This document shows, piece by piece, positions 4,381 through 57,682 of a stretch of 64,000 nucleotides of DNA (positions are counted from its first letter, which is position 1; each line of letters starts with the position of its first letter). The stretch lies in the sequence record PZ179883.1; one strand, written 5' to 3'. Origin of the DNA: a phage. The position numbers and the translations under genes were made by a program. Under the pieces are notes generated by a model. The model was given only the letters and a program-made list of their open reading frames with translations. It did no database searches and had not been told where the DNA came from.

Positions 4381-4405
4381 TAAAAAAGGACTCCCGAAGG
4401 AGTCC
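4381..4405 (-). terminator. rho-independent terminator with UUCG tetraloop
   Basis: Minus strand GGACUCC-UUCG-GGAGUCC followed by UUUUUU; downstream of the 30.9-position ORF. Confidence 0.6.
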
Positions 4406-4410
4406 TCAAC

Positions 4411-4587
4411 TTATGCTTTCTGCTTACCAAAACGAGAAGCATCATCTCGAAGAACCGCACGTGCTCGGCGCATGATCTTCTCAACAGTTTGATTGATACG
4501 AGAGTTCGACCCACGCTTGTAGCCAGCGCGTTTAGAATCACCAACTTTCTTTTCAACTGCTTTCTTTGCTTTAGCTTGTTTTGCCAT
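4411..4587 (-). CDS. small basic protein (30.9 position)
   Basis: Lys/Arg-rich ORF; start placed at the internal ATG (MAKQAKAKK...), the track start at 4629 has no RBS. Confidence 0.45.
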   Translation of the reverse strand: MAKQAKAKKAVEKKVGDSKRAGYKRGSNSRINQTVEKIMRRARAVLRDDASRFGKQKA

Positions 4588-4707
4588 TATAAATTCTCTT
4601 TTAAATGAAAATGCAGGACTTATTGGCATTGCCTGCGCAAGCCCTCAAGGGGAACATAGGTTTTTGAATATTTAACGACCAGGATAACCATAAACCCGTC
4701 ATCATAC

Positions 4708-4956
4708 TTACTTCAGTGTTACCACAAAGTGACGAACTGCTTTTCGTGCGGCAGAAGCCAAAGGCTTAGCATATTTAAGTTCATCTTTTTCCTGAAGCTC
4801 AGCAGCTAATGCAGTTTGAGCAGGATTCAGATGTTTGAAATAACGCAGGATTTCAAGAGCTTCGGCTTCAACATCAATAGATGCGCCATAGTTTTCGTGA
4901 CCATTATTCCATGCGTTTCGTTGCAGTTCAAGAGCGTGTTGTAATTGTTTAATCAT
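4708..4956 (-). CDS. rIII: lysis-inhibition accessory protein rIII
   Basis: 82-aa ORF MIKQLQHALELQRNAWNNGHENYG... matches T4 rIII from memory; located between gene 31 and the 30.x ORFs. Confidence 0.85.
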   Translation of the reverse strand: MIKQLQHALELQRNAWNNGHENYGASIDVEAEALEILRYFKHLNPAQTALAAELQEKDELKYAKPLASAARKAVRHFVVTLK

Positions 4957-5096
4957 TTAAAAATTCTCGTTAGAGATTAAAACTCGGTAGTCACGTTCTT
5001 CTGAATTTCATCTTCTTTCGACAGATCTCTCAGTTGTAGACTACCACGTAGAATTGTTCGGTTAACTTATTATTCCGACACCCAATTCATATTATT

Positions 5097-5104
5097 ATTT
5101 ATAT
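5097..5104 (-). promoter_or_regulatory. candidate late promoter TATAAATA upstream of rIII
   Basis: Minus-strand TATAAATA at the 3' end of gene 31, ~140 nt before rIII. Confidence 0.35.
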
Positions 5105-5439
5105 CACTTATAAAGACACGGAATAGCTTTATAGTGACAGGTAACGAATTTTTGTTTAATTTCTTTTGGCTGCTTAAGTCCCAGAGCTACAAAAGGATGC
5201 GGAACGTTTCGAATTTGACCAACTGGAAGAGAAGTCAAATCACCAACTTCGCAGAAACCTTCAGGAACATCAGGACCAACGGAGTGAACTACACACAGTT
5301 CAGGAACTTCACCTTGAACACGTTTACCGATAATAAGTCCTGATTCTGTAACTTCTTCATCACCGGCTTGCGCAGGTTCAGAAACTAAAATAACGTATTC
5401 ACCGACAGCACGAATTGGTAGCTGTTGTACTTCAGACAT
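5104..5439 (-). CDS. 31: gp31 co-chaperonin (GroES-like) for capsid protein folding
   Basis: 111-aa [24 protein letters not shown]... matches T4 gp31. Confidence 0.9.
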
Positions 5440-5468
5440 CGTTTTTCCTTTTTGTTAACAGATGAATT

Positions 5469-5496
5469 AATAATAACAAATAATTCTTAAAGCATT
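5469..5496 (-). promoter_or_regulatory. candidate MotA-dependent middle promoter for gene 31
   Basis: Minus-strand AAATGCTTTA (MotA box) followed 12 nt later by TATTAT, ~30 nt before the gene 31 ATG. Confidence 0.5.
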
Positions 5497-5804
5497 TATT
5501 TACCAATAAATTGAAGCAAATGCTCAACTTTCATACCATTAACGGAAATCAATTTGTCAATAGAAAAACCTCGCCATGCACCAAGCTCAACATCAAATAC
5601 TGGAATCATATCAGTAGATTCTTTCCGAGTAGATTCAGTCAATTTACCGGTTTGCATGGTTGGCATAAAATCGGCATCACGAGTACCTTTCATAGTACGA
5701 ATAGTACCATCAGACTTTTCAAAAACTATGTTTGAAACCCCCATGGACAATTTAGTTTTCAAAATTTCACGAATTGCTACTTTTTGTTCAGTTGTCAGTT
5801 TCAT
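5496..5804 (-). CDS. hypothetical protein
   Basis: 102-aa ORF between gene 31 and cd. Confidence 0.5.
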   Translation of the reverse strand: MKLTTEQKVAIREILKTKLSMGVSNIVFEKSDGTIRTMKGTRDADFMPTMQTGKLTESTRKESTDMIPVFDVELGAWRGFSIDKLISVNGMKVEHLLQFIGK

Positions 5805-6041
5805 TTATTTACCTATTACAGTTTTAATATGGGTTGTTCCACGTTCTTTAAGAGTGGAAAGCAATTTTTGGCATTTTTCTAAATCAGATTTCCAACTATA
5901 CGGCCTATCAATACTAGTCCAATCAGTTTTATAATACTGTTTCCATTTAGAGAAAAAATACTTCTTATACTCTACAGCAAATGAAATGTTCTCATTAGAA
6001 TAAGAACTAATTGCTGTGAGCTGTACCAAACGAAATTTCAT
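5805..6041 (-). CDS. hypothetical protein
   Basis: 78-aa ORF, stop abuts the cd start. Confidence 0.45.
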   Translation of the reverse strand: MKFRLVQLTAISSYSNENISFAVEYKKYFFSKWKQYYKTDWTSIDRPYSWKSDLEKCQKLLSTLKERGTTHIKTVIGK

Positions 6042-6622
6042 TATTCACCACAGAATTCGTTGATATTTTCCCAGTTTAACTTATTTAAGTTTTTCTTAGG
6101 AACATTAAACACTTCAATACCTGCATTTCGCAGAATATCATCCCAGCCAGGTTTATTTTTATCGTATGTTTCGCAATAAACCAGCTTTTTAATACCAGAT
6201 TGAGCTATCGCTTTTGCACAATCTGGGCAAGGAGAAAGTGTTACATACATAGTAGCACCTTCAATTGAAGAACCGTTTCGTGCAGCAAACAAAATCGCAT
6301 TTAGTTCAGCATGAATTTCATTTTTAGACGACCATTCAGAGTGCGCGCTACGGTGTTCTTTCGCCAAGACAAAACGATCAGTTGAACCAAATGATACACA
6401 TTCAGGCTTATGACCTTGAATGATAGTATGTTTAGGCTTATTCAACAACCAGCCTTGTTCAGCAGCATAATCGCAGCAATTCACACCACCAGCAGGTGAA
6501 CCATTATATCCGGTAGAAATAATGCGTCCGTTCTTTTCAATTACTGCTCCTACCTTCCAGGAGCAACATTTTGATTCTTGTGATACTAAATATGCAATTT
6601 GAAGTACTGTACTCGCTTTCAT
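6041..6622 (-). CDS. cd: dCMP deaminase
   Basis: 193-aa ORF with cytidine/dCMP deaminase zinc motifs (HAE ... PCxxC). Confidence 0.9.
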   Translation of the reverse strand: MKASTVLQIAYLVSQESKCCSWKVGAVIEKNGRIISTGYNGSPAGGVNCCDYAAEQGWLLNKPKHTIIQGHKPECVSFGSTDRFVLAKEHRSAHSEWSSKNEIHAELNAILFAARNGSSIEGATMYVTLSPCPDCAKAIAQSGIKKLVYCETYDKNKPGWDDILRNAGIEVFNVPKKNLNKLNWENINEFCGE

Positions 6623-6957
6623 TTCATAATCACCAGATAAGCAGATTTAGCAGTTTCAACACGATAAATTTCGTGACGAAGTTTAGTTATACTTTTAATA
6701 ACAGAACTAATTATATTCTGCCCATCTTTAAAGCGGTTTTTCTTATCAATAAAAATTACGCCAACCATCTTTTTGTGAAGCTCAACTGGATACTTCGTCA
6801 CAATAATAGCATCATACACAGAAGGATGAATACTATTCACTAGAGTGTCATTCATTAAAGTTATTCTAATGAACTGTGCTGTTTCAGAATCAAGCGCTCT
6901 ATGATCGCCAGTATCATTTTCAAGACAATTATCAATTATATCAGTTAAATTCATCAT
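6619..6957 (-). CDS. hypothetical protein
   Basis: 112-aa ORF. Confidence 0.5.
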   Translation of the reverse strand: MMNLTDIIDNCLENDTGDHRALDSETAQFIRITLMNDTLVNSIHPSVYDAIIVTKYPVELHKKMVGVIFIDKKNRFKDGQNIISSVIKSITKLRHEIYRVETAKSAYLVIMK

Positions 6958-7190
6958 AGTACGCCATACACCCTTTGTGCTTCAACTAATCCATCAAAAT
7001 CCAGTTTAAGATGTGTTATTTGGTCACCATCACCTGGATTCACAATTACTAATACTGAACGAGGAGTTTCGGTAATAACACGAACCGACGTTTCAGGAAA
7101 TCGTTCAGAAACCTTATTTACCAATTCTTGAGCAAATAGTTTAACTTTTTCTTGGAATTCTTTAACAGTAATTGGTTTTTCGCTTAGCAT
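6954..7190 (-). CDS. hypothetical protein
   Basis: 78-aa ORF. Confidence 0.45.
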   Translation of the reverse strand: MLSEKPITVKEFQEKVKLFAQELVNKVSERFPETSVRVITETPRSVLVIVNPGDGDQITHLKLDFDGLVEAQRVYGVL

Positions 7191-7711
7191 GTTGATCCTA
7201 GCTCCTTACTTTCAACGTTTTTAACTAATTTGACAGAAACTAATTCAGCATCTTGGGTAATCATTACCGGGCCTTCTTCATACTCTTCAAGATATTCTAG
7301 AGCTTTCTTTTTAGCTTCTTCCTTCGTATCAGTTTGAGCATAGATATAAAACATACAACCAGTAATACCTACTACTTTCCACTTAATTTCTTTATCAGTT
7401 TTAATTTCAAATTTACTGATAGAGTCATCTTTTTGAACTTCTTCGAAAAAATAATATTCTGACATATAAGTAATTGAAAATAGCGGGCTATCTTTATAAG
7501 ATTCGCCCATTACATCAACAGCTTTATACCAGCAATCGTCAATTTCGCGTTTAATGCTAATAACATTTTTCGCAGGATCTATTTTTACTTTAAATGAATT
7601 TTCCCCAATAAACTGAGCAATTCGTTTATTAGCCCCGCAAGTTTCATTAAAAATATCTTTATATCCAGCTTTAAAGCGATAAACCTTATCTTCTTCAAAC
7701 CATTCGCTCAT
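7184..7711 (-). CDS. hypothetical protein
   Basis: 175-aa ORF with early-promoter motif upstream. Confidence 0.5.
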   Translation of the reverse strand: MSEWFEEDKVYRFKAGYKDIFNETCGANKRIAQFIGENSFKVKIDPAKNVISIKREIDDCWYKAVDVMGESYKDSPLFSITYMSEYYFFEEVQKDDSISKFEIKTDKEIKWKVVGITGCMFYIYAQTDTKEEAKKKALEYLEEYEEGPVMITQDAELVSVKLVKNVESKELGSTC

Positions 7712-7741
7712 TTCAATTTCCTCATTTGTTTTGGTAGAGCT

Positions 7742-7770
7742 ATAATATCACAACTCTACCGTAAAGTAAA
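7742..7770 (-). promoter_or_regulatory. early promoter (T4-type sigma-70)
   Basis: Minus strand: TTTACT, 17 nt, TATTAT; upstream of ORF 7184..7711. Confidence 0.5.
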
Positions 7771-7773
7771 CTA

Positions 7774-8049: not shown

Positions 8050-8051
8050 AT

Positions 8052-8441: not shown

Positions 8442-8442
<1 letters not shown>
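8245..8442 (-). CDS. hypothetical protein
   Basis: 65-aa ORF. Confidence 0.4.
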
Positions 8443-12685: not shown

Positions 12686-12693
12686 AATAAAAT

Positions 12694-12707
12694 GGGCCTT
12701 GCGGCCC
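12694..12707 (-). other. GC-rich hairpin between the denA Shine-Dalgarno sequence and start codon
   Basis: Minus strand AAGGAG-U-GGGCC-GCAA-GGCCC-AUUUUAUU-AUG. Confidence 0.45.
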
Positions 12708-12712
12708 ACTCC

Positions 12713-13882
12713 TTAAAAGTATTTTTTAAAACTCATCATAACTTTATCATCAACATCATTATCAATCTGTGCAACAAGATAAGATGACAGTTCTACTTCT
12801 TGTGGCGCTGATTGAACATTATCAGAATTAAGATATTCACGAATCCAAGGATATGGATGTTTAACCGGAGCATCGGTAATTGGGCATGGAAGACCGCACT
12901 GTTTCATACGAGATACAGTTAAGTAATCAATAAAGCTCCACATGCTATTTGTATTTAATCCAGGAACATCACCATCTTTAAATAAATGAACCGCCCAGTC
13001 TTTTTCTTGGCGGTTAACTTCCATGAAAATATCAACTGCTTCTTGTTCACACTCTTGAGCAATTTTAACCCATTCATCACCATCAGTGCCAAGTTGAAGT
13101 TGACGAATAATATATTGGGTGCCTTTAAGGTGAAGTTGCTCATCACGAGCAATGAACTTCATAATCTTGGCATTACCTTCCATGATTTCCATGTTCTTAT
13201 GGAAGTTAAAGGTACATGCGAAAGATACATAAAAACGAATAGCTTCCAATGCGTTGATTACGTGCAGGCAGAGGTAAAGAGATTTCATTAGTGCTCGTTT
13301 AGTACATTCAACAACTTTGCCTAACTCTTCTTTACGAAATCCTTCTGATAAAATTCCTTCATAATCTTCAACCGCATTCTGATATTCACGAGTCTTAACT
13401 AGAACGTCATCATAATAACGACCAATAGATTCAGCACGTTTCATGATAGCTTTATCTAATACAATCTCATCAAATACCTTTGATGGATCAGTATAAAGAT
13501 TTCGCATAATATGAGTATATGAACGGCTGTGAATAGTTTCACTAAAAGTCCATGTAGCAACCCATGTATCAAGACTTGGGTCTGAAATTAACGACATAAG
13601 TACAGCAGACGGTGCACGACCCTGAATGCTATCCAAAAGTGATTGATACTTCAGGTTATTAGTAAAAATATCTTGCTGATACTGAGGAAGCTTGTTAAAT
13701 TGTGCAGCATCCATCATCAAGTTTACTTCTTCAGGACGCCAGAAAAATGACAACTGCTTTTCGGTTAAATCTTCAAAAACTTTATGACGTTGAATATCGT
13801 AACGCGCAATACCAAGACCTGAACCGAAGAACATAGGTTCTTTTAAAACATCAACTGGATTTGTATTAAAAACTGTGCTCAT
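12713..13882 (-). CDS. nrdB: ribonucleotide reductase small subunit, uninterrupted
   Basis: Continuous 389-aa ORF with di-iron/tyrosyl-radical R2 features; no intron, unlike T4. Confidence 0.9.
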   Translation of the reverse strand: MSTVFNTNPVDVLKEPMFFGSGLGIARYDIQRHKVFEDLTEKQLSFFWRPEEVNLMMDAAQFNKLPQYQQDIFTNNLKYQSLLDSIQGRAPSAVLMSLISDPSLDTWVATWTFSETIHSRSYTHIMRNLYTDPSKVFDEIVLDKAIMKRAESIGRYYDDVLVKTREYQNAVEDYEGILSEGFRKEELGKVVECTKRALMKSLYLCLHVINALEAIRFYVSFACTFNFHKNMEIMEGNAKIMKFIARDEQLHLKGTQYIIRQLQLGTDGDEWVKIAQECEQEAVDIFMEVNRQEKDWAVHLFKDGDVPGLNTNSMWSFIDYLTVSRMKQCGLPCPITDAPVKHPYPWIREYLNSDNVQSAPQEVELSSYLVAQIDNDVDDKVMMSFKKYF

Positions 13883-13933: not shown

Positions 13934-16198
13934 TCATAATTTACAGGATGAACAATCTTCAGCTTTTGGAGTTTCTATTTCATAATCATCAGTACCAGAA
14001 CCATCACGGGTATTATGATAATAGAAATTTTTTCCGCCAAAATACCAAAAATACAAAAGGTCATCAATCATTATTGACATTGGAACCTTTCCTTTTGGAA
14101 AAATCTGCGGGTCATAATATGTATTCGCTGAAGCTGATTGACATACCCATTTCAGCATAATAGCTACTTGCGTAAGATAAGGTTTATTACCTTTCTTAGC
14201 TAATTTCCATGTATAATCATAGAGGTCTATGTTATGTTCAATATTGGGCACGACTTGATTAAAGGAACCCTCTTTTGATTCTTTAACCGAGACTGGTCCA
14301 CGTGGAGGCTCGATACCGTTTGTACTGTTAGAAACTTGGGAAGATGACTCACATGGCATAAGTGCTGATAATGTGCTATTACGGATGCCAAAGAGCTTAA
14401 GGTCTTCCCGCAGCGCCGACCAGTCACAAACGTATTTTGGAGCTGCGATTTGGTCAATCTTTTTATTGTACCAGTCGATAGGTAATTCGCCTCGAGACCA
14501 ACGAGTGTCTGAATAATATTCGCAAGGTCCTTTTTCTTTGGCGAGCTTAATGGATGCTTTAATGAGTCCATACTGTAATCTCTCAAATAGTTCATGTGTT
14601 AAATCGTTAGCATCTTCATAAGAAGCAAAGTTACTTGCCAGCCAAGCTGCATAGTTGGTAACACCTACACCAAGATTTCGACGCTTTTTAGCTTTTTCTG
14701 CTTCAGGAACTGGATATCCTTGGTAATCCAAAAGATTATCAAGAGCGCGAACTTGAACTTCTGCTAATTCATTAATTTTATCTTGGTCTTGCCAATCGAA
14801 GTTATCCAACACAAATGCAGATAACGTGCACAATCCAATTTCAGCATCAGGACTATTCACATCATTTGTTGGAATAGCAATTTCACAGCACAAGTTACTC
14901 TGACGAATAGGTGCCTTTTCACGAATAAATGGAGTATAGTTATTCGTATTATCAATGAACTGCACATAAATCCTTGCTGTTCCTGAACGTTCAGTCATGA
15001 GCAATTCAAATAGTTCACGGGCTTTAATACGCTTTTTACGAATATTAGGGTCTTTTTCTGCTGCTTCGTATAATTCACGGAAACGGTCTTGGTCTTTAAA
15101 ATAAGAATAATAAAGTTCGCCACCCATTTCATGCGGACTAAACAAAGTAATGTAATCGTTCTTTCCGAATCGTTCCATCATTAGGTCATTCAGCTGAACA
15201 CCATAATCCATATGACGGATACGGTTTTCTTCTACACCTTTGTTATTTTTCAAAACGAGAAGATTTTCAACTTCCAAATGCCAAATAGGATAATAAGCAG
15301 TAGCAGCGCCGCCACGAATTCCGCCCTGTGAACATGATTTAACAGCAGTCTGAAAATGTTTCCAAAAAGGAATAACACCAGTATGACGCACTTCACCTGT
15401 GCCAATCTTAGAACCTTCGGCACGAATCATACCAACGTTAATGCCGATTCCAGCTCGTTTAGAAATATACTCAACAATTGAAGCAGAAGCCTTATTGATA
15501 GACTTCAGCGAATCACCTGCCTCAATAACAACGCATGAACTAAATTGCCGAGTTGGAGTACGACATCCAGCCATAATAGGAGTTGGCAGTGAAATCTGTC
15601 GAGTAGATACTGCTTCATAAAAACGAATAACATGTTTTAATCTGTCAACAGGTTCATCTTGATGCAATGCCATTCCAATAGTCATAAATGCAAACTGTGG
15701 AGTTTCATAAATTTGACCAGTGGTTTTATCTTTAACGAGATATTTTTCTTTTAATTGCATCGCCCCGGAATAAGTAAATTCCATATCCCGCTCGTGCTTA
15801 ATTTTTGATTCTAAAAATGTAATTTCTTCTGCAGAATATTTTGACAACAATTCAGGGTCGTATTTACCTTCATTTACACAGTAAGAAATATGGTCAATAA
15901 ATGAACGGGGCTCATACTGTCCGTACACATGTTTACGAAGAGCAAACATTAAACAACGTGCAGCTACATATTGGTAATCAGGCTCTTCAACTGAAATAGA
16001 ATTCGCAGCAGCCTTAATTACAATGGTTTGAATGTCATCAGTGGTCATTCCATCACGGAGATATGATTTAATATTTTCATATAATTCATAAGGATCTACA
16101 GATGTTCCTTCAGCTGCCCAAGATAAAACTTTAATAATTTTTTGTGGATCAAAGCTCTGAGAAACACCACTACTTTTGATAACATTAATTAATTGCAT
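13934..16198 (-). CDS. nrdA: ribonucleotide reductase large subunit
   Basis: 754-aa ORF, class Ia R1 with C-terminal CxxC tail; length equals T4 NrdA. Confidence 0.9.
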   Translation of the reverse strand: MQLINVIKSSGVSQSFDPQKIIKVLSWAAEGTSVDPYELYENIKSYLRDGMTTDDIQTIVIKAAANSISVEEPDYQYVAARCLMFALRKHVYGQYEPRSFIDHISYCVNEGKYDPELLSKYSAEEITFLESKIKHERDMEFTYSGAMQLKEKYLVKDKTTGQIYETPQFAFMTIGMALHQDEPVDRLKHVIRFYEAVSTRQISLPTPIMAGCRTPTRQFSSCVVIEAGDSLKSINKASASIVEYISKRAGIGINVGMIRAEGSKIGTGEVRHTGVIPFWKHFQTAVKSCSQGGIRGGAATAYYPIWHLEVENLLVLKNNKGVEENRIRHMDYGVQLNDLMMERFGKNDYITLFSPHEMGGELYYSYFKDQDRFRELYEAAEKDPNIRKKRIKARELFELLMTERSGTARIYVQFIDNTNNYTPFIREKAPIRQSNLCCEIAIPTNDVNSPDAEIGLCTLSAFVLDNFDWQDQDKINELAEVQVRALDNLLDYQGYPVPEAEKAKKRRNLGVGVTNYAAWLASNFASYEDANDLTHELFERLQYGLIKASIKLAKEKGPCEYYSDTRWSRGELPIDWYNKKIDQIAAPKYVCDWSALREDLKLFGIRNSTLSALMPCESSSQVSNSTNGIEPPRGPVSVKESKEGSFNQVVPNIEHNIDLYDYTWKLAKKGNKPYLTQVAIMLKWVCQSASANTYYDPQIFPKGKVPMSIMIDDLLYFWYFGGKNFYYHNTRDGSGTDDYEIETPKAEDCSSCKL

Positions 16199-16755: not shown

Positions 16756-17067
16756 TTACACCGCCATTTTTCCTTTAATAGGAGGGTGTGATTCGTAACC
16801 TTTAAGAACGAAATCTTTAGGCCTGAGTTTAAGAACATATTCCAATTGTTCTTTAGTAGAAAGATAGCGGAATTTATAAGGCAATCCGCCTATTACCAGT
16901 TCACAAAGCTCTTTAGGTTCACGACGCAAAATTTCTTTACATTGTTCTACGTGATTCATATAGATATGAGTATTACCGCCAGAAAATATCAAATCTCCTG
17001 GAATAAGATTACACATCTTAGCTACAATATGAACTAATGCAGCATATGATGCAATATTAAATGGAAG
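16756..17067 (-). CDS. td: thymidylate synthase, exon 2
   Basis: Exon 2 starts at CTT 17065-17067 (LPFNIASYA...), directly after the intron's terminal G at 17068. Confidence 0.9.
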   Translation of the reverse strand, partial: LPFNIASYAALVHIVAKMCNLIPGDLIFSGGNTHIYMNHVEQCKEILRREPKELCELVIGGLPYKFRYLSTKEQLEYVLKLRPKDFVLKGYESHPPIKGKMAV

Positions 17068-18083
17068 CATTATGTTCAGATAAGGTCGTTAATCTTACCC
17101 CGGAATTATATCCAGCTGCATGTCACCATACAGATCAGACTATATCTCCATCTTGATGAAGCAAGATGTCTATCGTTTCGAGTCACTTGACCCTACTCCC
17201 CAAAGGGATAGTCGTTAGGCATTTATGTAGAACCAATTCCATTTATCAGATTTTACACGATAAGTAACTAATCCAGACGAAATTTTAAAATGTCTAGCTG
17301 CATCTGCTGCACAATCAAAAATAACCCCATCACATGAAATCTTTTTAATATTACTAGGCTTTTTACCTTTCATCTTTTCTGATATTTTAGATTTAGTTAT
17401 GTCTGAATGCTTATGATTAAAGAATGAATTATTTTCACCTGAACGATTTCTGCATTTACTACAAGTATAAGCAGAAGTTTGTATGCGAACACCGCACTTA
17501 CAAAACTTATGGGTTTCTGGATTCCAACGCCCGTTTTTACTTCCGGGTTTACTGTAAAGAGCTTTCCGACCATCAGGTCCAAGTTTAAGCATCTTAGCTT
17601 TAACAGTTTCAGAACGTTTCTTAATAATTTCTTCTTTTAATGGATGCGTAGAACATGTATCACCAAACGTTGCATCAGCAATATTGTATCCATTAATTTT
17701 AGAATTAAGCTCTTTAATCCAAAAATTTTCTCGTTCAATAATCAAATCTTTCTCATATGGAATTTCTTCCAAAATAGAACATTCAAACACATTACCATGT
17801 TTGTTAAAAGACCTCTGAAGCTTTATAGAAGAATGGCATCCTTTTTCTAAATCTTTAAAATGCCTCTTCCATCTCTTTTCAAAATCTTTAGCACTTCCTA
17901 CATATACTTTATTGTTTAAAGTATTTTTAATCTGATAAATTCCGCTTTTCATAAATACCTCTTTAAATATAGAAGTATTTATTAAAGGGCAGTCCTACAA
18001 TTTAGCACGGGATTGTCTACTAGAGAGGTCCCCCGTTTAGATAGATTACAAGTATAAGTCACCTTATACTCAGGCCTCAATTA
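17068..18083 (-). mobile_element. self-splicing group I intron in td carrying the I-TevI homing endonuclease
   Basis: 1016 nt between td exons; intron starts with the in-frame UAA directly after exon 1 GGU and ends ...AUG; internal GIY-YIG ORF. Confidence 0.9.
17215..17952 (-). CDS. I-TevI intron-encoded GIY-YIG homing endonuclease
   Basis: 245-aa ORF MKSGIYQIKNTLNNKVYVGSAKDFEKRWKRH... with GIY-YIG motif and C-terminal zinc finger/DNA-binding region. Confidence 0.9.
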   Translation of the reverse strand: MKSGIYQIKNTLNNKVYVGSAKDFEKRWKRHFKDLEKGCHSSIKLQRSFNKHGNVFECSILEEIPYEKDLIIERENFWIKELNSKINGYNIADATFGDTCSTHPLKEEIIKKRSETVKAKMLKLGPDGRKALYSKPGSKNGRWNPETHKFCKCGVRIQTSAYTCSKCRNRSGENNSFFNHKHSDITKSKISEKMKGKKPSNIKKISCDGVIFDCAADAARHFKISSGLVTYRVKSDKWNWFYINA

Positions 18084-19219
<1,136 letters not shown>

Positions 19220-19462
19220 TCAAACAGACTTTTTCACAATTTTCCAATCAGCTTTAAACTGTTCAACGTCAGAATGATAAATCCAGAATCCTGCGCTTTC
19301 TCCATCCTCATAAAGAGGGCATCCATCGCATTCATCTTCCCATCCCATATCACGTAAAAGATGTTCGGCTTTTTCAACGAGATCAGAATCTTTACCGATG
19401 ATATTAAAATACCATTTACCTTTAACTTCTGAATCTTTGATGCTCTGACGTTGTAATCTCAT
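19220..19462 (-). CDS. hypothetical protein (frd.1 position)
   Basis: Start placed at the internal ATG 19460-19462 with GGAG RBS, because an early-promoter motif lies inside the longer track ORF. Confidence 0.45.
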   Translation of the reverse strand: MRLQRQSIKDSEVKGKWYFNIIGKDSDLVEKAEHLLRDMGWEDECDGCPLYEDGESAGFWIYHSDVEQFKADWKIVKKSV

Positions 19463-19487
19463 TTTATTCTCCTTAGTTGATAAGGCT

Positions 19488-28854: not shown

Positions 28855-28859
28855 ACTGA

Positions 28860-28886
28860 GGGAGCCTTCGGGTTCCCTTTTTCTTT
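28860..28886 (+). terminator. rho-independent terminator between genes 35 and 36
   Basis: Plus strand GGGAGCC-UUCG-GGUUCCC followed by UUUUUCUUU. Confidence 0.6.
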
Positions 28887-28893
28887 ATAAATA
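28886..28893 (+). promoter_or_regulatory. late promoter TATAAATA for gene 36
   Basis: Exact TATAAATA 24 nt upstream of the gene 36 ATG, after the 35-36 terminator hairpin. Confidence 0.7.
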
Positions 28894-37497: not shown

Positions 37498-37528
37498 AGG
37501 GAGAGCCGAGGCTCTCCCTAAAATTACT
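37498..37528 (-). terminator. rho-independent terminator
   Basis: Minus strand GGGAGAGC-CUCG-GCUCUCCC followed by UUUUUUUAUUUU; after ORF 37524..37673. Confidence 0.65.
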
Positions 37529-39301: not shown

Positions 39302-39382
39302 TCACTGGCGTCCGAAGACGCCTTTAGTTTTAAGATTATTACGATAGAACTGCATCACGTGTTCGTTGTGGAAATTACTCAT
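39302..39382 (-). CDS. stp: Stp peptide (inhibitor of EcoprrI restriction, activator of PrrC anticodon nuclease)
   Basis: 26-codon [29 protein letters not shown], identical in length and sequence to T4 Stp as recalled; ATG overlaps ndd stop. Confidence 0.85.
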
Positions 39383-40793: not shown

Positions 40794-41057
40794 TCATAGT
40801 TCAATCTCAGCGATTTTCATTTCATTACTATTAATAGCCGCTTTAAGACTATCTGAAAGAATTACATTCCAGTGGTCATTCATATGACCATTAACTAAGC
40901 GTGTAATTTCTTCGGGAGTTGAAAAATAAGGCGTATCAGACTCCCAATGCGATAATCCTAAGCGAGTATAAATCATGCCTTCATCATCGCTAGAATATTC
41001 AACTGACACAAACTCATCAGTTATTTTATGTTTAGCGTAATAAAATTTAAATTTCAT
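40794..41057 (-). CDS. hypothetical protein
   Basis: Start at the internal ATG 41055-41057 (MKFKFYYAKHK...) with GGAGAG RBS, downstream of the early-promoter motif at 41092-41120. Confidence 0.5.
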   Translation of the reverse strand: MKFKFYYAKHKITDEFVSVEYSSDDEGMIYTRLGLSHWESDTPYFSTPEEITRLVNGHMNDHWNVILSDSLKAAINSNEMKIAEIEL

Positions 41058-41695: not shown

Positions 41696-41764
41696 TTAAA
41701 CTTTCCTTTTATGTCTGAATCACTGGTATTCATATAATAAATCATAATTTCTCTTAAAACAAAA

Positions 41765-41776
41765 GGGCCGAAGCCC
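41765..41776 (-). other. intercistronic UUCG-tetraloop hairpin
   Basis: Minus strand GGGC-UUCG-GCCC downstream of ORF 41782..41976. Confidence 0.45.
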
Positions 41777-41781
41777 TTATT

Positions 41782-41976: not shown

Positions 41977-41992
41977 AATTTTCCTCAGTTAA

Positions 41993-42004
41993 GGGCCGAA
42001 GCCC
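41993..42004 (-). other. intercistronic UUCG-tetraloop hairpin
   Basis: Same GGGCUUCGGCCC sequence immediately after the rIIB stop, followed by the next RBS. Confidence 0.45.
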
Positions 42005-42943
42005 TTATTTAAATTGTTCAGTAACGTCTTCAACTACTTCGTATTGGCAGGTACGCATTTTAGCGTCGTTGTAATCAATCGGAATTGATACTACATCACG
42101 CGGATGCACTTTAACTTTTACAACTCGACTGGTTGAACTACCAAAGTGACGAATATAAGATTTAGAACACACATGCAGACCACGAGAACAAGTTTGTGTA
42201 TCATCGTCATTTACACGAGTACGTGGCATTTTAACTACTTTACCAGGACTGTTATCAAAAGTATTTGAATGACAGTCAAAGTAATTACTGCGAACTACTT
42301 TCCAAGCATAGAAGTAACCATCTTCTGTAATTTCAATATCGTTTGCTACCAAGAAATCAAAGAGTCGAGATACCGCTTTTTGGCTTGGGTTTTCCAACAG
42401 ATTTTCCAAGAACGGAAAATAGAATTCAAAGTTTTCGCCTTTTTCCATCGAGTCAAGAATACGATCAACCAAACCAGATCGCAATTCAATATTTTGATAG
42501 AACAAGCTTCCACCTTCAATTCGAACATCGCCGGAAATATATTTTTCAACAGCGCGACGAACATTAATTTTTTGTGCCGCTTCTTCCAACTTATCCGCTA
42601 CAAGCAGATTAAGAATTTCCTGGAAGTTTGAATGAGTATTAGGAGTTGCGTTATAAGTTACACCGTCAACAGTAATTGAAATGAATTTTTTAGATGCATT
42701 CCAAATAATGTCAGATTTAGCAACTGGAGCAATAACTACATCGCTATTAACTTTAACTGTAATATCACCGCTAATAGTAACTTTAGAGCGTTTAGCTTCT
42801 TCAGCATTTTTCAAAACACGACGGATTGTGTCAACCGATACACCTTGCCAATCAGCCAATTCCTGTTGGGTGTAATTACCACTTGAATACAGCTTAACAA
42901 TTTCAGCTTGTTCGTTTTTGGTCAGGCATTTAATATTGTACAT
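42005..42943 (-). CDS. rIIB: rIIB protein
   Basis: 312-aa ORF MYNIKCLTKNEQAEIVKLYSSGNYTQQELADW... matches T4 rIIB. Confidence 0.92.
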   Translation of the reverse strand: MYNIKCLTKNEQAEIVKLYSSGNYTQQELADWQGVSVDTIRRVLKNAEEAKRSKVTISGDITVKVNSDVVIAPVAKSDIIWNASKKFISITVDGVTYNATPNTHSNFQEILNLLVADKLEEAAQKINVRRAVEKYISGDVRIEGGSLFYQNIELRSGLVDRILDSMEKGENFEFYFPFLENLLENPSQKAVSRLFDFLVANDIEITEDGYFYAWKVVRSNYFDCHSNTFDNSPGKVVKMPRTRVNDDDTQTCSRGLHVCSKSYIRHFGSSTSRVVKVKVHPRDVVSIPIDYNDAKMRTCQYEVVEDVTEQFK

Positions 42944-45400: not shown

Positions 45401-47218
45401 CTACTGGCTCATCCATTCTTTACGAAGGTCAGCATTATCTCCCATGAGCATTTCAAAAAGCTCTTTCCAGTTCTCAGGAAGTTTAACAACATCATATACT
45501 GGATTTTGAATCATCTCACGATATTCAGATTTTTCCAAAGAGCCAAGTCCTTTAATATAACGGATGCTATGTTTAGGTAGAGCATCTTTAGCACTCTCAT
45601 ATTCAGCGACTGTATAAAACCATTCTTGTTTTTTACCAATCTGTGCGATGATTACAGGAGTTTTGACAAAGCGAATTCGTCCTTGCTCAAACAGTTCTGG
45701 CCAATTACTAAAAAATCCAAGCAGAGAAGGATAAATGCTTCCTAGACCATCATGGTCAGCATCAGTCATAATAGCAATATTATGATAATTCAAGTTTTCA
45801 GCTTTTTCACCGAGAACTAATCCAGTGATTGCGCAAATATCAAACAGTTCTTTGTTTTTAAGCATGTCAGCATATGACATACCCCAACTGTTGAGAACTT
45901 TACCACGTAATGGATAACCACCATGAAGTTCTTTATCACGAACATCAATAAGATATCCGATAGCAGAATCACCCTCAGTCAAGAAAAGAGTAGTGTCAGC
46001 ATCTTTACCGCAAAGATTCGCTTTAATATGTTTATGAACCTTAGCTTTAGAAGCCTTTTTAGCTGCTTTAGTTTCTGCTGCTTTTTCTGCCGCTAATTTA
46101 CGAGCCAAAGCAGCTTCAATAATTGGCATTAAAATTGCTTCATTATTTAGAATAGCACGTGAAATCTTTTTAGCATCAAGTTGAATATGACTACGGATTT
46201 CACCAAATGGAGAAGTCAAACGCTCTTTAGTTTGAGAATCAAATCGCATGTTTTTCATATCACGGACAAACATAACGATAGTCAAACATTCTTTAACGCG
46301 TGCTTTAGTCACATCAATTTTGAACTTACGTTTGATTTGTGGAATAAGGTCTTCACAAATATCATCCATAACACAGTCAATGTGATGGCCACCATTCTTA
46401 GTGTGAATGTTATTCACATAAGTTAATTGACGAAAACCATCCGGTGAACGACCAACCGCAATAGAGCAATTTTCTTGTTCTTGAACGATAGCATGCTCAT
46501 CATATTGGCGTGCATATTTCTTAAAATTGCCCTGAACCTTTTTACCATTAAAGGTAAATTGAATATCAGGATAAACTACTGCAAGTGTCTGGAGACGATC
46601 TAGTGTAATGTCAAGATAAACTTGGGACAGCTCATTAGTTTCAAATGACATAAAATCAGGAATGAAAGTAACACGAGTTCCTTTCCATTTTCCTGGAATA
46701 GTTTCCCATGATTTATTTTCCATGCCATTTGAACAACGAACTACAATATTATTTTGACCATCACCAGTTTCACCGACAAACATCACAGAAAAAATGTTTG
46801 TCAAACTAGAACCAACACCATTCATACCGCCAGTGACGCGTTCTTTATCATCACCAAAGTTACCGCCTGCTTTTGGAATAGTCCAGGCAGCAACAGGACC
46901 AGGAATTTCTTCACCAGTAGGTGTTTTAACCATCGCCTGTGGAATACCGCGACCGTTATCTTCAACTGTTACTTGATTGTTTTTAATAGTAACATTAATT
47001 TTATTTGCGAATTTAAACTTAGTACGAATACCTTCATCTACTGAGTTATCGATAATTTCATCAATAAGCTTAACAAGACCAGGTACATACTGAACACTTT
47101 CCCATTTACCAAACAGAAAGCGCTCATGCATTTCATTAGCGGAAGAGCCAATGTACATGCCGCTACGCTTTTTGATATGTTCAATATCGCTCAGAATTTT
47201 AATTTCATTCTTAATCAT
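45401..47218 (-). CDS. 39: DNA topoisomerase II large subunit gp39, uninterrupted (covers T4 genes 39 plus 60)
   Basis: Single 605-606 codon ORF with GHKL ATPase N-terminus and TOPRIM C-terminus; no stop, gap or bypass element. Confidence 0.9.
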   Translation of the reverse strand: MIKNEIKILSDIEHIKKRSGMYIGSSANEMHERFLFGKWESVQYVPGLVKLIDEIIDNSVDEGIRTKFKFANKINVTIKNNQVTVEDNGRGIPQAMVKTPTGEEIPGPVAAWTIPKAGGNFGDDKERVTGGMNGVGSSLTNIFSVMFVGETGDGQNNIVVRCSNGMENKSWETIPGKWKGTRVTFIPDFMSFETNELSQVYLDITLDRLQTLAVVYPDIQFTFNGKKVQGNFKKYARQYDEHAIVQEQENCSIAVGRSPDGFRQLTYVNNIHTKNGGHHIDCVMDDICEDLIPQIKRKFKIDVTKARVKECLTIVMFVRDMKNMRFDSQTKERLTSPFGEIRSHIQLDAKKISRAILNNEAILMPIIEAALARKLAAEKAAETKAAKKASKAKVHKHIKANLCGKDADTTLFLTEGDSAIGYLIDVRDKELHGGYPLRGKVLNSWGMSYADMLKNKELFDICAITGLVLGEKAENLNYHNIAIMTDADHDGLGSIYPSLLGFFSNWPELFEQGRIRFVKTPVIIAQIGKKQEWFYTVAEYESAKDALPKHSIRYIKGLGSLEKSEYREMIQNPVYDVVKLPENWKELFEMLMGDNADLRKEWMSQ

Positions 47219-47274
47219 CACTTATCCTCGTTTGGTTTCGGGAATATTATACTCCGGTAATCATAAAGCTAAAG

Positions 47275-47286
47275 GCCCGAAGGCCT
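47275..47286 (-). other. intercistronic UUCG-tetraloop hairpin
   Basis: Minus strand GGCC-UUCG-GGCC between the lipoprotein ORF and gene 39. Confidence 0.45.
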
Positions 47287-47287
47287 T

Positions 47288-47557
47288 TTATTTAAAACGA
47301 ATAGTTGAATCCTTAAAGAACAGCCCAGAACATACTGTTCCTTCTACTTTCTGCCCAGTAGGTCCAATAGCACGAAATCCAGTATGTTGGAAATCATTTT
47401 CAGAACAACCGAACCAGTTATATCCAGTGATTTCAATATTAGTAAAACCGCTTGAAGACAAAACTTTGGTTGCATTATCAGCATCAGTACATCCTACTAA
47501 AGACACTGCTAATACTAATGCCGCGATAGAACGATTAATATATTTCATAATTTTCAC
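47288..47557 (-). CDS. putative lipoprotein
   Basis: Signal peptide plus lipobox LVGC (MKIMKYINRSIAALVLAVSLVGCTD). Confidence 0.5.
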   Translation of the reverse strand: MKIMKYINRSIAALVLAVSLVGCTDADNATKVLSSSGFTNIEITGYNWFGCSENDFQHTGFRAIGPTGQKVEGTVCSGLFFKDSTIRFK

Positions 47558-48735: not shown

Positions 48736-48907
48736 TACAATTTCCTCGTTAATTGAACATTGGAGCGATGCGTTTCAGAAGAGTAGCAGCACCTTTGGCA
48801 AATTTTCCATTTTATTCTCCAAATTATTTTCTATATCAGTAGTTGATATTGATATAGTACCATAATCAACTACTGATGTATATAGTTTTATGAAAAAATT
48901 TTAAACT

Positions 48908-53400: not shown

Positions 53401-53401
53401 A

Positions 53402-54148: not shown

Positions 54149-54178
54149 ATTTTTCTCACGGACGGGTTAACTACTTAT

Positions 54179-54207
54179 ACTATAACATTTTTACTTCAGC
54201 TTGTAAA
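54179..54207 (-). promoter_or_regulatory. early promoter upstream of the srd-position ORF
   Basis: Minus strand: GTTTACA, 17 nt, TATAGT. Confidence 0.5.
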
Positions 54208-54264
54208 CAACTTTATGAAAAATGCTTTAAAACTTTCATGGTATAATGAATCTAAGTCCTTCCA

Positions 54265-54867
54265 TTATAGATTAAATCCTTCAAAATCAAGAGTATAGAT
54301 AGTGTATGTTGAATACTTTTTATACTCGTATCTATCCGCAATTCTAAATACACTTCCAGCTGGTATCATTACTTCTTGTTCATCTGAAACTAATTCCATA
54401 TTACGATAACGATGGCTATCTGGAAACTTAAAACTCGGACTATATTCTTTACAACGTAGAGCTTTTATAGCATACTCCTGGAAATTAAATACCATAGGAG
54501 CTTTGAATTCAAAAATAACTTGTGTGTTGTATTCTAATCCAGAAGCAAAATGTAGAGCTATATTTTTATCATATGAAGCTGATACTACTTTATCAAATGT
54601 AATAATATCAATTCCTTGATTTAACACTTGCTTAGTCTCAACTGGAACACCTCTCCAAAGAGGTTTATCGTTTGGAACCAAACGAGATTTGATTATTTCA
54701 TTTAACCAAGAGTGGTCGTCTGGCTTATTAGTAATACAATGAATTAAAAGTTCAATTTCGGATAAATTAAATCCTTCAGAAAGTAATTCTTCACGAATAG
54801 AAGCACGCACCGATGCATCCATTGATTTGATTTTAAAATCTTTTAATTGCATTGCTGAATATTTCAT
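54265..54867 (-). CDS. modA: ADP-ribosyltransferase ModA
   Basis: 200-aa ORF with R ... S-x-S ... (Q/E)xE arrangement (LWRGV ... SASYD ... EQEVMIP); position and length as T4 ModA. Confidence 0.75.
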   Translation of the reverse strand: MKYSAMQLKDFKIKSMDASVRASIREELLSEGFNLSEIELLIHCITNKPDDHSWLNEIIKSRLVPNDKPLWRGVPVETKQVLNQGIDIITFDKVVSASYDKNIALHFASGLEYNTQVIFEFKAPMVFNFQEYAIKALRCKEYSPSFKFPDSHRYRNMELVSDEQEVMIPAGSVFRIADRYEYKKYSTYTIYTLDFEGFNL

Positions 54868-55499
54868 TCAACTACCTCAATATCATACACTTTAAATGTT
54901 CCAAATGAATCGTGTAATTTTTCTTTTGAAATAGAAGTTATTTTATACTTTCCAATTGGAATCATCCATTCTTGTTCACGCACAATCATCATTAAGTTAT
55001 CAGTACGTTCTGAATCTAATCCATCAGTATCTTCATATGTATACTTAAACTCAGTGTTAGGAGAAGAAAGTATAATATCGCTGATATGGTCAGAGTAATT
55101 AAAAGCTTTATCAGTTTTTAAGCGAAATATTATTTCAGTGGAATATTCAACATAAGAAAAACCACATGCTGTGTGCAAACTAGTAGTAAATGAATCTACT
55201 CTGTTCGTTGAAAACACTTCTCCAACTTGTAAATCTTTAATGAGTTCTTTTGTCGATTTTGATATACCACGATATAACTGATAAGGTGATTCAGTTAAAT
55301 GCTTTTTAATGATTTTATTCAACTGCCGATGAAGAGCTTCATTCTTTTTGGCTTCCATACATTGCCAAAGAACTGACTGCTCAAAGTCAGTAAATTTTTC
55401 ACAGACTTTTTTATACATATCATATTGAAAATCGACACTTTCAGCTTTTATAGATAACTGTTCAACATCTGCGAGATTAATAATCATGATAGCCTCCAT
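54864..55499 (-). CDS. modB: ADP-ribosyltransferase ModB
   Basis: Paralog of modA (LYRGI ... STN ... EQEWMIP); true start may be the Met at 55487. Confidence 0.72.
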   Translation of the reverse strand: MEAIMIINLADVEQLSIKAESVDFQYDMYKKVCEKFTDFEQSVLWQCMEAKKNEALHRQLNKIIKKHLTESPYQLYRGISKSTKELIKDLQVGEVFSTNRVDSFTTSLHTACGFSYVEYSTEIIFRLKTDKAFNYSDHISDIILSSPNTEFKYTYEDTDGLDSERTDNLMMIVREQEWMIPIGKYKITSISKEKLHDSFGTFKVYDIEVVE

Positions 55500-55513
55500 A
55501 TACTTCAGAAGCT

Positions 55514-55542
55514 ATCATATCATTGTTAGGAAGGAAAGTAAA
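55514..55542 (-). promoter_or_regulatory. early promoter upstream of modB
   Basis: Minus strand: GTTTACT, 17 nt, TATGAT. Confidence 0.5.
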
Positions 55543-55554
55543 CAACTTTTTGAA

Positions 55555-55737
55555 TTATTTTGCCCAGGGAGCCCAGGGCGGAGGGTCAAGATGGTATGAA
55601 GCTAGTTCTTCTAGAAGAGCATCTGGGGCTTCAATTCCATAATTCTGTAATACTATACGGTACTCTTTCTTATAATCACTAGAATCATTCTGGTTATTCG
55701 TAGAATGATTATCTTCTAACATCTCAAATAAATCCAT
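55555..55737 (-). CDS. hypothetical acidic protein
   Basis: 60-aa ORF. Confidence 0.4.
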   Translation of the reverse strand: MDLFEMLEDNHSTNNQNDSSDYKKEYRIVLQNYGIEAPDALLEELASYHLDPPPWAPWAK

Positions 55738-55745
55738 ATTAATTC

Positions 55746-56216
55746 CTAGCGATAAAAACCAAATTGACGATTAGCTTCAATAATCTTTCTTTCTTCTTCG
55801 GACATTCTCCAGCGTAGTCCAACGTCAAAATGAGCCCAGACCATCTTAACAAATGCATTTATATCTTTAATATCTTCAATAATGAATGTTTTACTTTTCG
55901 AAGGTTGACTCGCTAATTTAACTTTATCATCTTCAAACAGGTCAAAAAGACCATATTCATGAGCTCTTTTATAGCCTTTAATAGTTAAAGCTTCAGAAGA
56001 AGAAAATGGTGAATCAGTATTCTGCAAAATATCTTCAGTATGTTTTATAATTAGAATAACATTTTCTGGATATTTTCTTTCTTTTATATCTTTAATTAAA
56101 ATATCCGGATTTTCTGCTAAAGGAATAATTAATGAGCACTCTTTATCAAGTGTATTTACTGATTTACCTTCTTTAGACATAAATTTTATTGAATAATGTT
56201 TTGCTACTTCAATCAT
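55746..56216 (-). CDS. hypothetical protein
   Basis: 156-aa ORF. Confidence 0.5.
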
Positions 56217-56369
56217 GTGATTTCCTCTTGCCTACTAACGGGCCGTCAGGAATTTTGTTTTCCTGGATATATTTCTCATTTTCTTCCATCATTTTACTAC
56301 CGATTTTAAGAAGCAAATCCAATGCTTCATTTGCTTTAGCCTTGGCCTCTTCTAGCGTCATATCTCTGT

Positions 56370-56573
56370 TCATGATTTATCCCCATAGATGTCTCTCATC
56401 AATTTAAGTACTGAGCGTTCTAATTTCTTTTCTTTCTCAGCACTAATCATTGATTTCATCCATTCTTCCGATTCGTTCTGCATTTCTTTATTTGCTTGTT
56501 CAACCCAACCATCATCAATGTACATTGAGTTTGGTCTATTGAACCATTCAAACATTTTCTTCAGAACTTTCAT
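56370..56573 (-). CDS. hypothetical protein
   Basis: 67-aa ORF. Confidence 0.4.
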
Positions 56574-57045
56574 TTGTTTTACCTAAAACGACAGTAGAAG
56601 CATCGTCAAATTCATGAATTTTTAGCAAATTTGGATGTAAACTATTCCATACAGAAGAAATAAAATATGATAAAGCGTCTTCACTCGCAATTATAAATTT
56701 ATTTCCTTTATCTATTTTCCAACTATATAATGAATCGTACGAATAGAAAGATAAAGGTTTATCATTATATTGTTCTGCGCTAACATTAATGTATTCGGAT
56801 TTAGTAAATGCTTCAATTGCTCTAAATGGAATATTTGGTACAGTTTCAATAATTCCGATCTTTTTAAGTTTTATTTCAGCATCTTCTGGAACTGGCATTG
56901 AAACGAAATTTTCTACGAGATACATTGGGTCACAATAACCCTTATCAATCATTACTGCTACGGTAATTGGAACATCTTTAGCAAATGACATGCTATTACT
57001 GCTAATATACATTTCAAACAAAATCGCTTCCATAATTTTCCTCAA
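56548..57045 (-). CDS. hypothetical protein (mrh region)
   Basis: 165-aa ORF. Confidence 0.45.
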
Positions 57046-57380
57046 TCACAAGATGTAGATGAACAGCTAGAATCACAAGAACTTCCACATGAATCGCCCG
57101 TCCACACATGAACAGGAACATTAGTATCATATGAATCAGAACTAGACTGTGTATTCTGCGTATTAGATGATGTAGGTGTTGACCAACGCCAAGGATTTTT
57201 ATAATATTCCTGGGCTTCTTCATAAGTCATAGTAACTGCTTCTACTGTTCCATCTCCCATATAAACATATTCAACTACAGTTAAAGGAAGGTAGTCATTT
57301 GAAATAGGAACTACACCTTCTCCGGGAGTTGTAGAGAAAAAATCCGTAAAGAAACTTTTAAACCAATTAAAGATAAACAT
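57042..57380 (-). CDS. hypothetical membrane-anchored protein with Cys-rich C-terminal tail
   Basis: Start placed at the ATG overlapping the upstream stop (TAATG); N-terminal hydrophobic helix; C-terminus [15 protein letters not shown]. Confidence 0.45.
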
Positions 57381-57592
57381 TACAAAAAGCCTCTTTGAAA
57401 TTCGACTCTTTGAAATCCACCCCAATCAGTGTATCGCATTTCAGCATTGAACTCGACTGAACCATCTGCATGCATCATGAATGAATGCGTGACGATATCA
57501 CAATCCCAGCTTTTCATACCCCATTTATCAGAGATAGCTTTATCAAGAACCTTCTGGAGGTCTTCATTTGGTTTAATCCAGCGATTTAACAT
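57380..57592 (-). CDS. hypothetical protein
   Basis: 70-aa ORF. Confidence 0.45.
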   Translation of the reverse strand: MLNRWIKPNEDLQKVLDKAISDKWGMKSWDCDIVTHSFMMHADGSVEFNAEMRYTDWGGFQRVEFQRGFL

Positions 57593-57658
57593 AGTGCTCT
57601 CCTCTATAAGATAATTTTATTATACCATACTCATTTTGGAAAGTAAACCGGTAAAATG

Positions 57659-57682
57659 AAAAAAGGACTCCCGAAGGAGTCC
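57659..57682 (-). terminator. rho-independent terminator downstream of soc
   Basis: Same 18-nt hairpin as at 4388..4405 (GGACUCC-UUCG-GGAGUCC) followed by a U-tract. Confidence 0.6.

Follow-up and report, generated by a model that had tools for sequence, protein, structure and literature searches.

Recurrent UUCG-tetraloop hairpins at cistron boundaries in the genome of a T4-like phage

Introduction

The CUUCGG hairpins of bacteriophage T4 led to the recognition of the UUCG tetraloop. Here we describe eight hairpins with the same loop and closing pair, C(UUCG)G, in 64,000 nucleotides (nt) of DNA from a T4-like phage (sequence record PZ179883.1); the whole of this stretch is called the window, and coordinates refer to it unless T4 is indicated. 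In T4 itself, intergenic regions abound in CUUCGG hairpins, which are unusually stable and bring reverse transcriptase to a halt (Tuerk 1988, PNAS 85:1364, as cited in PMC8948821). According to a census published in 2020, more than half of the sense CTTCGG sites of T4 form hairpins and none of the antisense sites does (PMC7165471). In T4 terminators, a GC-rich stem with a loop of 4 nt is followed by poly(U) (PMC2988022). The 3´-to-5´ exonucleases that degrade T4 mRNA are RNase II, RNase R and PNPase. RegB cleaves GGAG where it is unpaired; the consensus of its strong sites is GGAGRAYARAA, and secondary structure protects from cleavage.

A second element to be considered is the promoter-early stem-loop (PeSL) cassette of T4-like phages, reportedly described by Arbiol et al. 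in 2010. For the PST/T4 pair, the account in PMC4122927 has a stem-loop, with a stem of the form AGNA-loop-TCNT, joined to a sigma-70-like early promoter TTTACW-N17-TAYWAT, and such cassettes are proposed there to mediate modular shuffling (Comeau, Arbiol & Krisch 2014, PMC4122927). Bracketing of a segment by direct repeats is the arrangement put forward in PeSL papers for mini-circle excision.

The window belongs to a Tequatrovirus, a 4-kb sample of it matching hundreds of T4-like genomes at ~98% identity. Comparison of its open reading frames (ORFs) with the T4 annotation gives the order of the T4 map, from ~30.2 through rIII, 31, cd, nrd, td, 32 and the tail-fibre genes 34–38, and on through motA, 52, rIIB, rIIA, 39 and soc to ~gene 41. 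Transcription is from the minus strand throughout, the 34–t block excepted, and the GC-skew profile agrees with this.

Results

A preliminary description of the window, made from the sequence without database searches, had listed C(UUCG)G hairpins at eight sites, seven on the minus strand and one on the plus strand, and all eight are present. The stems are contiguous runs of 6–9 bp, and each hairpin stands at the 3´ end of a cistron, in the strand that is transcribed and at or a few nt from the stop codon. Folding energies from nearest-neighbour prediction range from -10.7 to -16.4 kcal/mol, with z scores of -1.9 to -4.5 against shuffled sequences. In the following list, the genes upstream and downstream of each hairpin are separated by an arrowhead.

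3507–3526, minus strand: hairpin at 30.7>30.6, 8 bp, UGAGGGGC-UUCG-GCCCCUUA; no U-tract; -14.1 kcal/mol, z -2.99
4386–4407, minus strand: hairpin at 30.9>30.8, 9 bp, GAGGACUCC-UUCG-GGAGUCCUU, then UUUUAUUUU; intrinsic-terminator type; -16.4 kcal/mol, z -4.5
28858–28879, plus strand: hairpin at 35>36, 9 bp, GAGGGAGCC-UUCG-GGUUCCCUU, then UUUCUUU; terminator type; -15.1 kcal/mol, z -3.4
39307–39322, minus strand: hairpin at stp>ac, 6 bp, GGCGUC-UUCG-GACGCC; no U-tract; -11.5 kcal/mol, z -2.9
41763–41778, minus strand: hairpin at denB.1>denB, 6 bp, AAGGGC-UUCG-GCCCUU, then UUGUUUU; weak to moderate terminator type; -11.3 kcal/mol, z -3.0
41990–42007, minus strand: hairpin at rIIB>denB.1, 7 bp, UAAGGGC-UUCG-GCCCUUA; no U-tract; -11.0 kcal/mol, z -2.3
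47271–47288, minus strand: hairpin at 39.1>39, 7 bp, AAAGGCC-UUCG-GGCCUUU; borderline U content; -10.7 kcal/mol, z -1.9
57663–57684, minus strand: hairpin at soc>mrh.2, 9 bp, AAGGACUCC-UUCG-GGAGUCCUU, then UUUUCAUUUU; intrinsic-terminator type; -15.1 kcal/mol, z -4.25

The sequence CTTCGG occurs 26 times in the window, against ~13 expected. Nine of these sites form a stem of at least 6 bp, compared with a mean of 0.09 and a maximum of 2 in 300 dinucleotide-preserving shuffles (0.27 and 3 when stems of at least 5 bp are allowed). Hairpins form at 8 of the 13 sense sites and at 1 of the 13 antisense sites. The antisense case, at 40904–40921 on the plus strand, was a ninth candidate that we attribute to chance, as it folds at -3.3 kcal/mol (z +0.26). 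When all tetraloop hairpins were collected irrespective of the loop, given a stem of 6 or more bp that included 3 or more GC pairs, C(UUCG)G was found eight times on the sense strand and was the sole recurring type, each other type being found once.

Our own count in T4 (NC_000866), where 20 of 32 sense and 1 of 39 antisense CTTCGG sites form hairpins, agrees with the published census; the gene 23 terminator at 106543 was reassigned to the sense class in this count. That terminator of the T4 major capsid gene (plus strand of NC_000866) is likewise a C(UUCG)G hairpin, AGGGAACC-UUCG-GGUUCCCU, followed by U6. The mRNA-stabilizing CUUCGG hairpin 5´ of gene 32 that is mentioned in PMC8948821 was not used for comparison, since neither the window nor T4 was found to have a CTTCGG that forms a stem upstream of gene 32.

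The hairpins fall into two classes. Taking as intrinsic terminators those GC-rich stem-loops that are followed at once by at least 5 U in 8 nt, we find four of the eight, about half of the set, to be of this type: 4386 (7 U) and 57663, 28858 and 41763 (6 U each), which follow 30.9, soc, 35 and denB.1; 47271, after 39.1, is borderline with 4 U. An independent pattern scan returned 4407..4386 as the top terminator-like site of the first 20 kb. At 3507, 39307 and 41990 there is 1 U in 8 nt, and GAGGAAAAU-(N)-AUG begins 2–3 nt after the stem. These U counts bear out the preliminary description, in which terminator-like hairpins were set apart from those lying just before a ribosome-binding site (RBS).

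Most of the U-tract hairpins have a promoter-like sequence beside them:

4328–4356, minus strand: T4 early-promoter-like site TTTACA-N17-TAGTAT, 29 nt 3´ of the 30.9 terminator; PeSL-like cassette
28886–28893, plus strand: TATAAATA, the consensus of late promoters, upstream of gene 36 and separated from the gene 35 hairpin by 6 nt
47246–47270, minus strand: candidate middle promoter of gene 39, directly after the 39.1 hairpin; MotA-box-like AGCTTTA, 12 nt, TATAAT, by pattern match
57619–57647, minus strand: T4 early-promoter-like site TTTACT-N17-TATAAT, 15 nt 3´ of the soc terminator; PeSL-like cassette that fits the consensus

Both early-promoter-like sites are followed by ATTATCTTA, an (A/G)AGGAGA Shine-Dalgarno sequence (SD) and ATG. 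The -10 element of the 30.9 copy, TAGTAT, departs once from TAYWAT (G at position 3), and the MotA-like box departs from TGCTT at its first base. The gene 35 hairpin sits in the plus-strand late tail-fibre operon. At the hairpins after 30.9, soc, 35 and denB.1, and as a borderline case 39.1, E. coli RNA polymerase probably terminates without the help of a factor, and probably only in part; both this role and its efficiency are predicted from sequence features. Most of them adjoin what would be the promoter of the next unit, early for 30.9 and soc, late for 35 and MotA-type for 39.1, so that hairpin and promoter together would close one transcription unit and open the next and insulate early, middle and late units from each other. 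A longer inverted repeat (57633–57653 and 57694–57712, minus strand) encloses the soc terminator; in it, the final codons of soc are paired with the -35 region of the early promoter that follows, and the 100-nt fold has -39.9 kcal/mol. The repeat is not conserved where the Soc C-terminus differs and may be coincidental.

The second class comprises the hairpins at 30.7>30.6, stp>ac and rIIB>denB.1. The GAGG of 30.6 begins 2 nt after the 3507 stem, and the SDs of ac and denB.1 follow 3 nt after the stems at 39307 and 41990. The preliminary description had placed the non-terminator hairpins between a stop codon and the next RBS. The adjoining RBS holds for all three, whereas the position relative to the stop codon does not: the 39307 hairpin lies within the 26-aa Stp ORF (39302–39382), where it encodes the last codons, G-V-F-G-R, with the stop 3 nt past the stem, and at 41990 the stop codon UAA of rIIB makes up the first three bases of the stem. 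Since the U-tract is missing, these hairpins would not terminate transcription. They may act as structural punctuation in polycistronic mRNA, most likely as decay barriers that would block 3´-to-5´ exonucleases and protect the upstream cistron, or as insulators that may prevent upstream sequence from pairing with the downstream RBS. The part that the preliminary description gave them, of mRNA 3´ stabilizers or processing boundaries, is plausible.

Comparison with relatives shows what is kept. T4 has a CUUCGG hairpin at six of the eight junctions. Four are identical in sequence, at T4 positions 130339–130360 (30.9), 165510–165525 (stp>ac), 5381–5398 (39.1) and 15303–15324 (soc), and two differ in the stem, the denB.1>denB hairpin of T4 being a 13-bp version and the 35>36 hairpin having a C·U mismatch. 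In RB69, of the genus Mosigvirus, six of the eight junctions likewise carry C(UUCG)G hairpins, whose stems are wholly different: AGGGAGAC/GUCUCCCU after 30.9, a U6 terminator with the stem GGGGAC/GUCCCC after rIIB, and AAGGGC-UUCG-GCCCUU followed by U5 after 39.1. RB69 is without stp and has a different hairpin at that junction; at 30.7>30.6 it keeps an SD-adjacent hairpin with a different stem and loop. Relatives with 51% RIIB identity carry AAAGCCC-UUCG-GGGCUUU ~200 nt past rIIB, after a small intervening ORF. At 30.7>30.6, 13 contigs from IMG/VR have a hairpin that is always beside UUGAGGAAAAU and never followed by a U-tract, while stems and loops vary. At soc, the stem is almost invariant down to 49–63% Soc identity, the variants being one compensatory change, GGAAUCC/GGAUUCC, and one replacement hairpin.

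The 35>36 junction is the most informative. Throughout 25 T4-like contigs (gp36 identity 38–99%) it has a GC tetraloop hairpin, a U-tract and then TATAAATA or a close variant; the loop is mostly UUCG, and GAAA, GCAA, UUAU and UUUG also occur. Compensatory changes are found at 6 of 8 stem pairs. In an alignment anchored on the predicted hairpin and loop, covariation scores 0.565, the shuffles giving 0.279; none of 500 shuffles scored as high, and controls with slid pairing partners were far lower. Selection thus acts on the position and on the type of hairpin and not on the sequence of the stem. Moreover, several stems contain G-U pairs, which are A-C mismatches on the opposite strand; because of these pairs, and because UUCG is the mRNA-strand reading of every loop, the selected object is the RNA.

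Some observations weigh against reading all eight hairpins as conserved functional RNA elements. The rIIB>denB.1 hairpin, intact here, is degraded in T4 by the loss of one G, and at least that hairpin is therefore dispensable. The loop is not constant; at 30.7>30.6 it is UUCA in T4 and intact UUCG here, and UUUG, GAAA, GCAA and UUAU are found in relatives, from which it follows that UUCG is preferred and not required. Two relatives have C(CGAA)G on the sense strand, that is, the same stem with an exactly inverted loop, one at soc (L007, the same site as L059) and one at 30.9 (L066). This looks like a flip of the loop in the palindrome, and the two relatives are natural tests of the importance of the UUCG loop. 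The anchoring of the 35>36 alignment on the predicted structure tempers the covariation score. Finally, a search of the literature found no transcript 3´-end (Term-seq) data for T4 or for this phage and no genome-wide T4 3´-end map, so that termination and stabilization at these sites rest on prediction.

For the three SD-adjacent hairpins, a role in translation has to be weighed against that of decay barrier. They could be initiation elements for the downstream gene, acting in RBS presentation or in coupling of termination to re-initiation. Stem and GAGGAAAAU are always 2–3 nt apart in the window, and 0–5 nt apart at 30.7>30.6 in the 13 relatives and RB69, and the upstream stop codon lies in the stem (rIIB) or 3 nt after it (stp), so that a terminating ribosome must melt the stem beside the next RBS. 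This support comes from the arrangement of the sequence, and the rIIB junction, which is a U-tract terminator in RB69 and degraded in T4, argues against a strict translational requirement. We consider a translational role possible for these three hairpins, if on balance doubtful. Slightly more tentative is the proposal that the hairpins without a U-tract located 0–5 nt before UGAGGAAAAU (30.7>30.6, stp>ac, rIIB>denB.1) could be a selected module and not decayed terminators, serving either as processed ends of cistron-sized mRNAs or in the tuning of initiation; as a separate part of the same proposal, the identical cassettes treated below could be kept so by gene conversion.

The preliminary description also drew attention to identical copies, and on this it was accurate. 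GGACTCCTTCGGGAGTCC occurs exactly twice, at 4388–4405 and 57665–57682 (minus strand), 53 kb apart, where 0 occurrences are expected, and the identity of the two sites extends over 25 nt, AGGACTCCTTCGGGAGTCCTTTTTT, that include the first six U of the tail. The hairpins at 41765 and 41993 are likewise identical, over the 18 nt ATAAGGGCTTCGGCCCTT. T4 has exactly two copies of the 18-mer, at the same two junctions as here, and T4-like genomes have 2–4 exact copies in differing gene contexts. In IMG/VR, 105 stretches contain the exact 18-mer; their contexts are many and unrelated, and runs of U nearly always follow it. When one base pair was flipped, the resulting control 18-mer, GGAGTCCTTCGGGACTCC, was at least as common (at least 120 stretches), and the idea that the 18-mer is a special sequence was rejected. 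The shared stem is a generic phage solution to termination and not a specific recognition sequence.

Among the contigs with multiple copies (IMG/VR loci L017–L121, e.g., L024/L052/L054, L039/L059/L094 and L046/L081/L087/L109), the flanking eighth base pair is uniform between copies in 17 of 18, the T4 clade having A-U at this position and others G-C. This uniformity hints at homogenization between copies, by concerted evolution or by spread of a cassette; with few independent clades, it is a lead only. The ATAAGGGCTTCGGCCCTT sequence forms an 18-nt direct repeat (41763–41780 and 41991–42008) on either side of denB.1, an ORF of 64 codons, and RB69 has an unrelated ORF at the denB.1 position. 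In one relative (L277, IMGVR_UViG_2974742932_000001), 30.8 and 30.7 are gone upstream of the 30.6 homologue, and the 30.7>30.6 hairpin, at which the deletion thus has its endpoint, is joined straight to the early promoter usually found after the 30.9 terminator.

These observations bear on the view that the hairpins are primarily DNA-level substrates of recombination, for PeSL-type shuffling of genes between or within T4-like genomes, and that their RNA structure is incidental. The two identical pairs, with a 25-nt core repeated 53 kb apart and an 18-nt repeat around denB.1, would suit this view, as would the clade-specific base pair shared by copies in 17 of 18 multi-copy contigs, the deletion that stops at a hairpin and the exchange by PeSLs as proposed for PST/T4 in PMC4122927. 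However, it cannot explain the strand asymmetry, UUCG being read on the transcribed strand in all eight loops; the G-U pairs hold only in the sense RNA, the stems covary freely while loop and position are kept, and three hairpins have no adjacent promoter. As a primary explanation it is unlikely, and recombination by identical short cassettes can accompany an RNA function, as its by-product, and is not an alternative.

A further possibility is an operator function, in which a nuclease or RNA-binding protein with sequence specificity (RegB, RegA or another T4 factor) would recognize the hairpins. The preliminary description had raised RegB sites flanking the stems, and we found none: within 40 nt of the hairpins, GGAG is confined to three of the stems themselves and to single-stranded sequence downstream of two hairpins, those at stp>ac and 39.1>39, and at both of the latter places it does not fit the RegB consensus. 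The SDs beside the three RBS-abutting hairpins are of the GAGG type and contain no GGAG. Perfect matches to GGAGRAYARAA number four in the window, against 0.47 expected, all on the sense strand and none beside a hairpin:

3900–3910, minus strand: perfect RegB consensus site (exact pattern match), in the SD region of 30.7
4300–4310, minus strand: perfect RegB consensus site (exact pattern match), in the SD region of 30.8
19462–19472, minus strand: perfect RegB consensus site (exact pattern match)
48810–48820, minus strand: perfect RegB consensus site (exact pattern match)

The first two lie between the hairpins at 4386 and 3507, ~75–370 nt from them. An operator would account for the near invariance of the soc stem across 49–100% Soc identity, and the 3´ arm of the 18-mer does contain GGAG. 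Against this, T4-like genera have completely different stems at the other junctions, the flipped control 18-mer is found in at least 120 viral stretches and the 18-mer itself in 105, GGAG within a stem is shielded from RegB by secondary structure, as published, and the perfect RegB sites are elsewhere. We regard an operator function as highly improbable. That the hairpins are a chance or compositional artefact, as the lone antisense stem at 40904–40921 evidently is, we consider refuted by the 9 stem-forming sites seen where 0.09–0.27 are expected (maxima of 2–3 in the 300 shuffles), by the sense-strand bias and by conservation in other genera.

Other features of the window are recorded here. 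Two strong terminator-like hairpins have other loops:

12689–12712, minus strand: directly 3´ of nrdB, GGAGUGGGCC-GCAA-GGCCCAUUUU
37498–37519, minus strand: in the motA.1/motA interval, AGGGAGAGC-CUCG-GCUCUCCCU, then U7

The nrdB gene (12713–13882) is unsplit, unlike that of T4, whereas td (16756–18632, minus strand) is split by an intron, the ORF of which is 100% identical to T4 I-TevI. A scan of the whole window at Rfam gathering thresholds gave zero matches to any family, group I introns included. The large topoisomerase subunit, gp39, is one ORF of 606 aa (45401–47221, minus strand), unsplit as in RB69, whereas T4 has 39 and 60. The gene 60 bypass element, with its CUUCGG hairpin at T4 2834–2857, is therefore absent from the window.

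Discussion

We conclude, with a probability of about 0.8, that the repeated UUCG hairpins of this phage are the known T4-type CUUCGG hairpins: GC-rich RNA stems with an extra-stable loop that mark the 3´ boundaries of cistrons in mRNA and form two working classes. Structure, strand bias, position, conservation and covariation, on which this identification is based, are observed; the workings of the two classes are predictions of the kind set out above. The phenomenon as such has been described before (Tuerk et al. 1988; Comeau et al. 2014), the interpretation offered in the preliminary description is in essence that of the textbooks and is supported in part, and the value of the present analysis is one of calibration, a classic feature of T4 having been rediscovered from raw sequence. 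For annotation, the hairpins are useful as reliable markers of the boundaries of transcription units and of cassettes of promoter and terminator. They also provide comparative data on a case in which the type and position of a tetraloop hairpin are conserved while the stems drift.

Of the systems described earlier, intrinsic terminators of E. coli and T4 resemble the hairpins at 4386, 57663, 28858 and 41763 in having a GC-rich stem, a 4-nt loop and an immediate U-tract; those at 3507, 39307 and 41990 differ by lacking the U-tract, and 47271 is borderline. The resemblance to PeSL cassettes is confined to 30.9 and soc. Both hairpins are followed by TTTAC[A/T]-N17-TA..AT, ATTATCTTA, an SD and a start codon, their stem AGGA...TCCT fits the form AGNA-loop-TCNT given in PMC4122927, and the copies within a genome are homogeneous. 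The cassette is complete at 57663 and has one deviating base, in the -10 element, at 4386, whereas the other six hairpins have no early promoter. The gene 60 bypass hairpin of T4 shares the C(UUCG)G-capped stem and its stabilizing tetraloop, and differs in lying in a coding gap and acting on the ribosome.

The closest match is with the CUUCGG hairpins of T4 as a set. Loop and closing pair are the same, the bias toward the sense strand and toward intergenic positions is the same, the phages belong to one group and six of the eight junctions are shared. The differences are at the level of strains: the window has an intact UUCG loop at 30.7>30.6 and an intact hairpin at rIIB>denB.1, and T4 has a gene 60 bypass hairpin and a 37>38 hairpin that are absent here.

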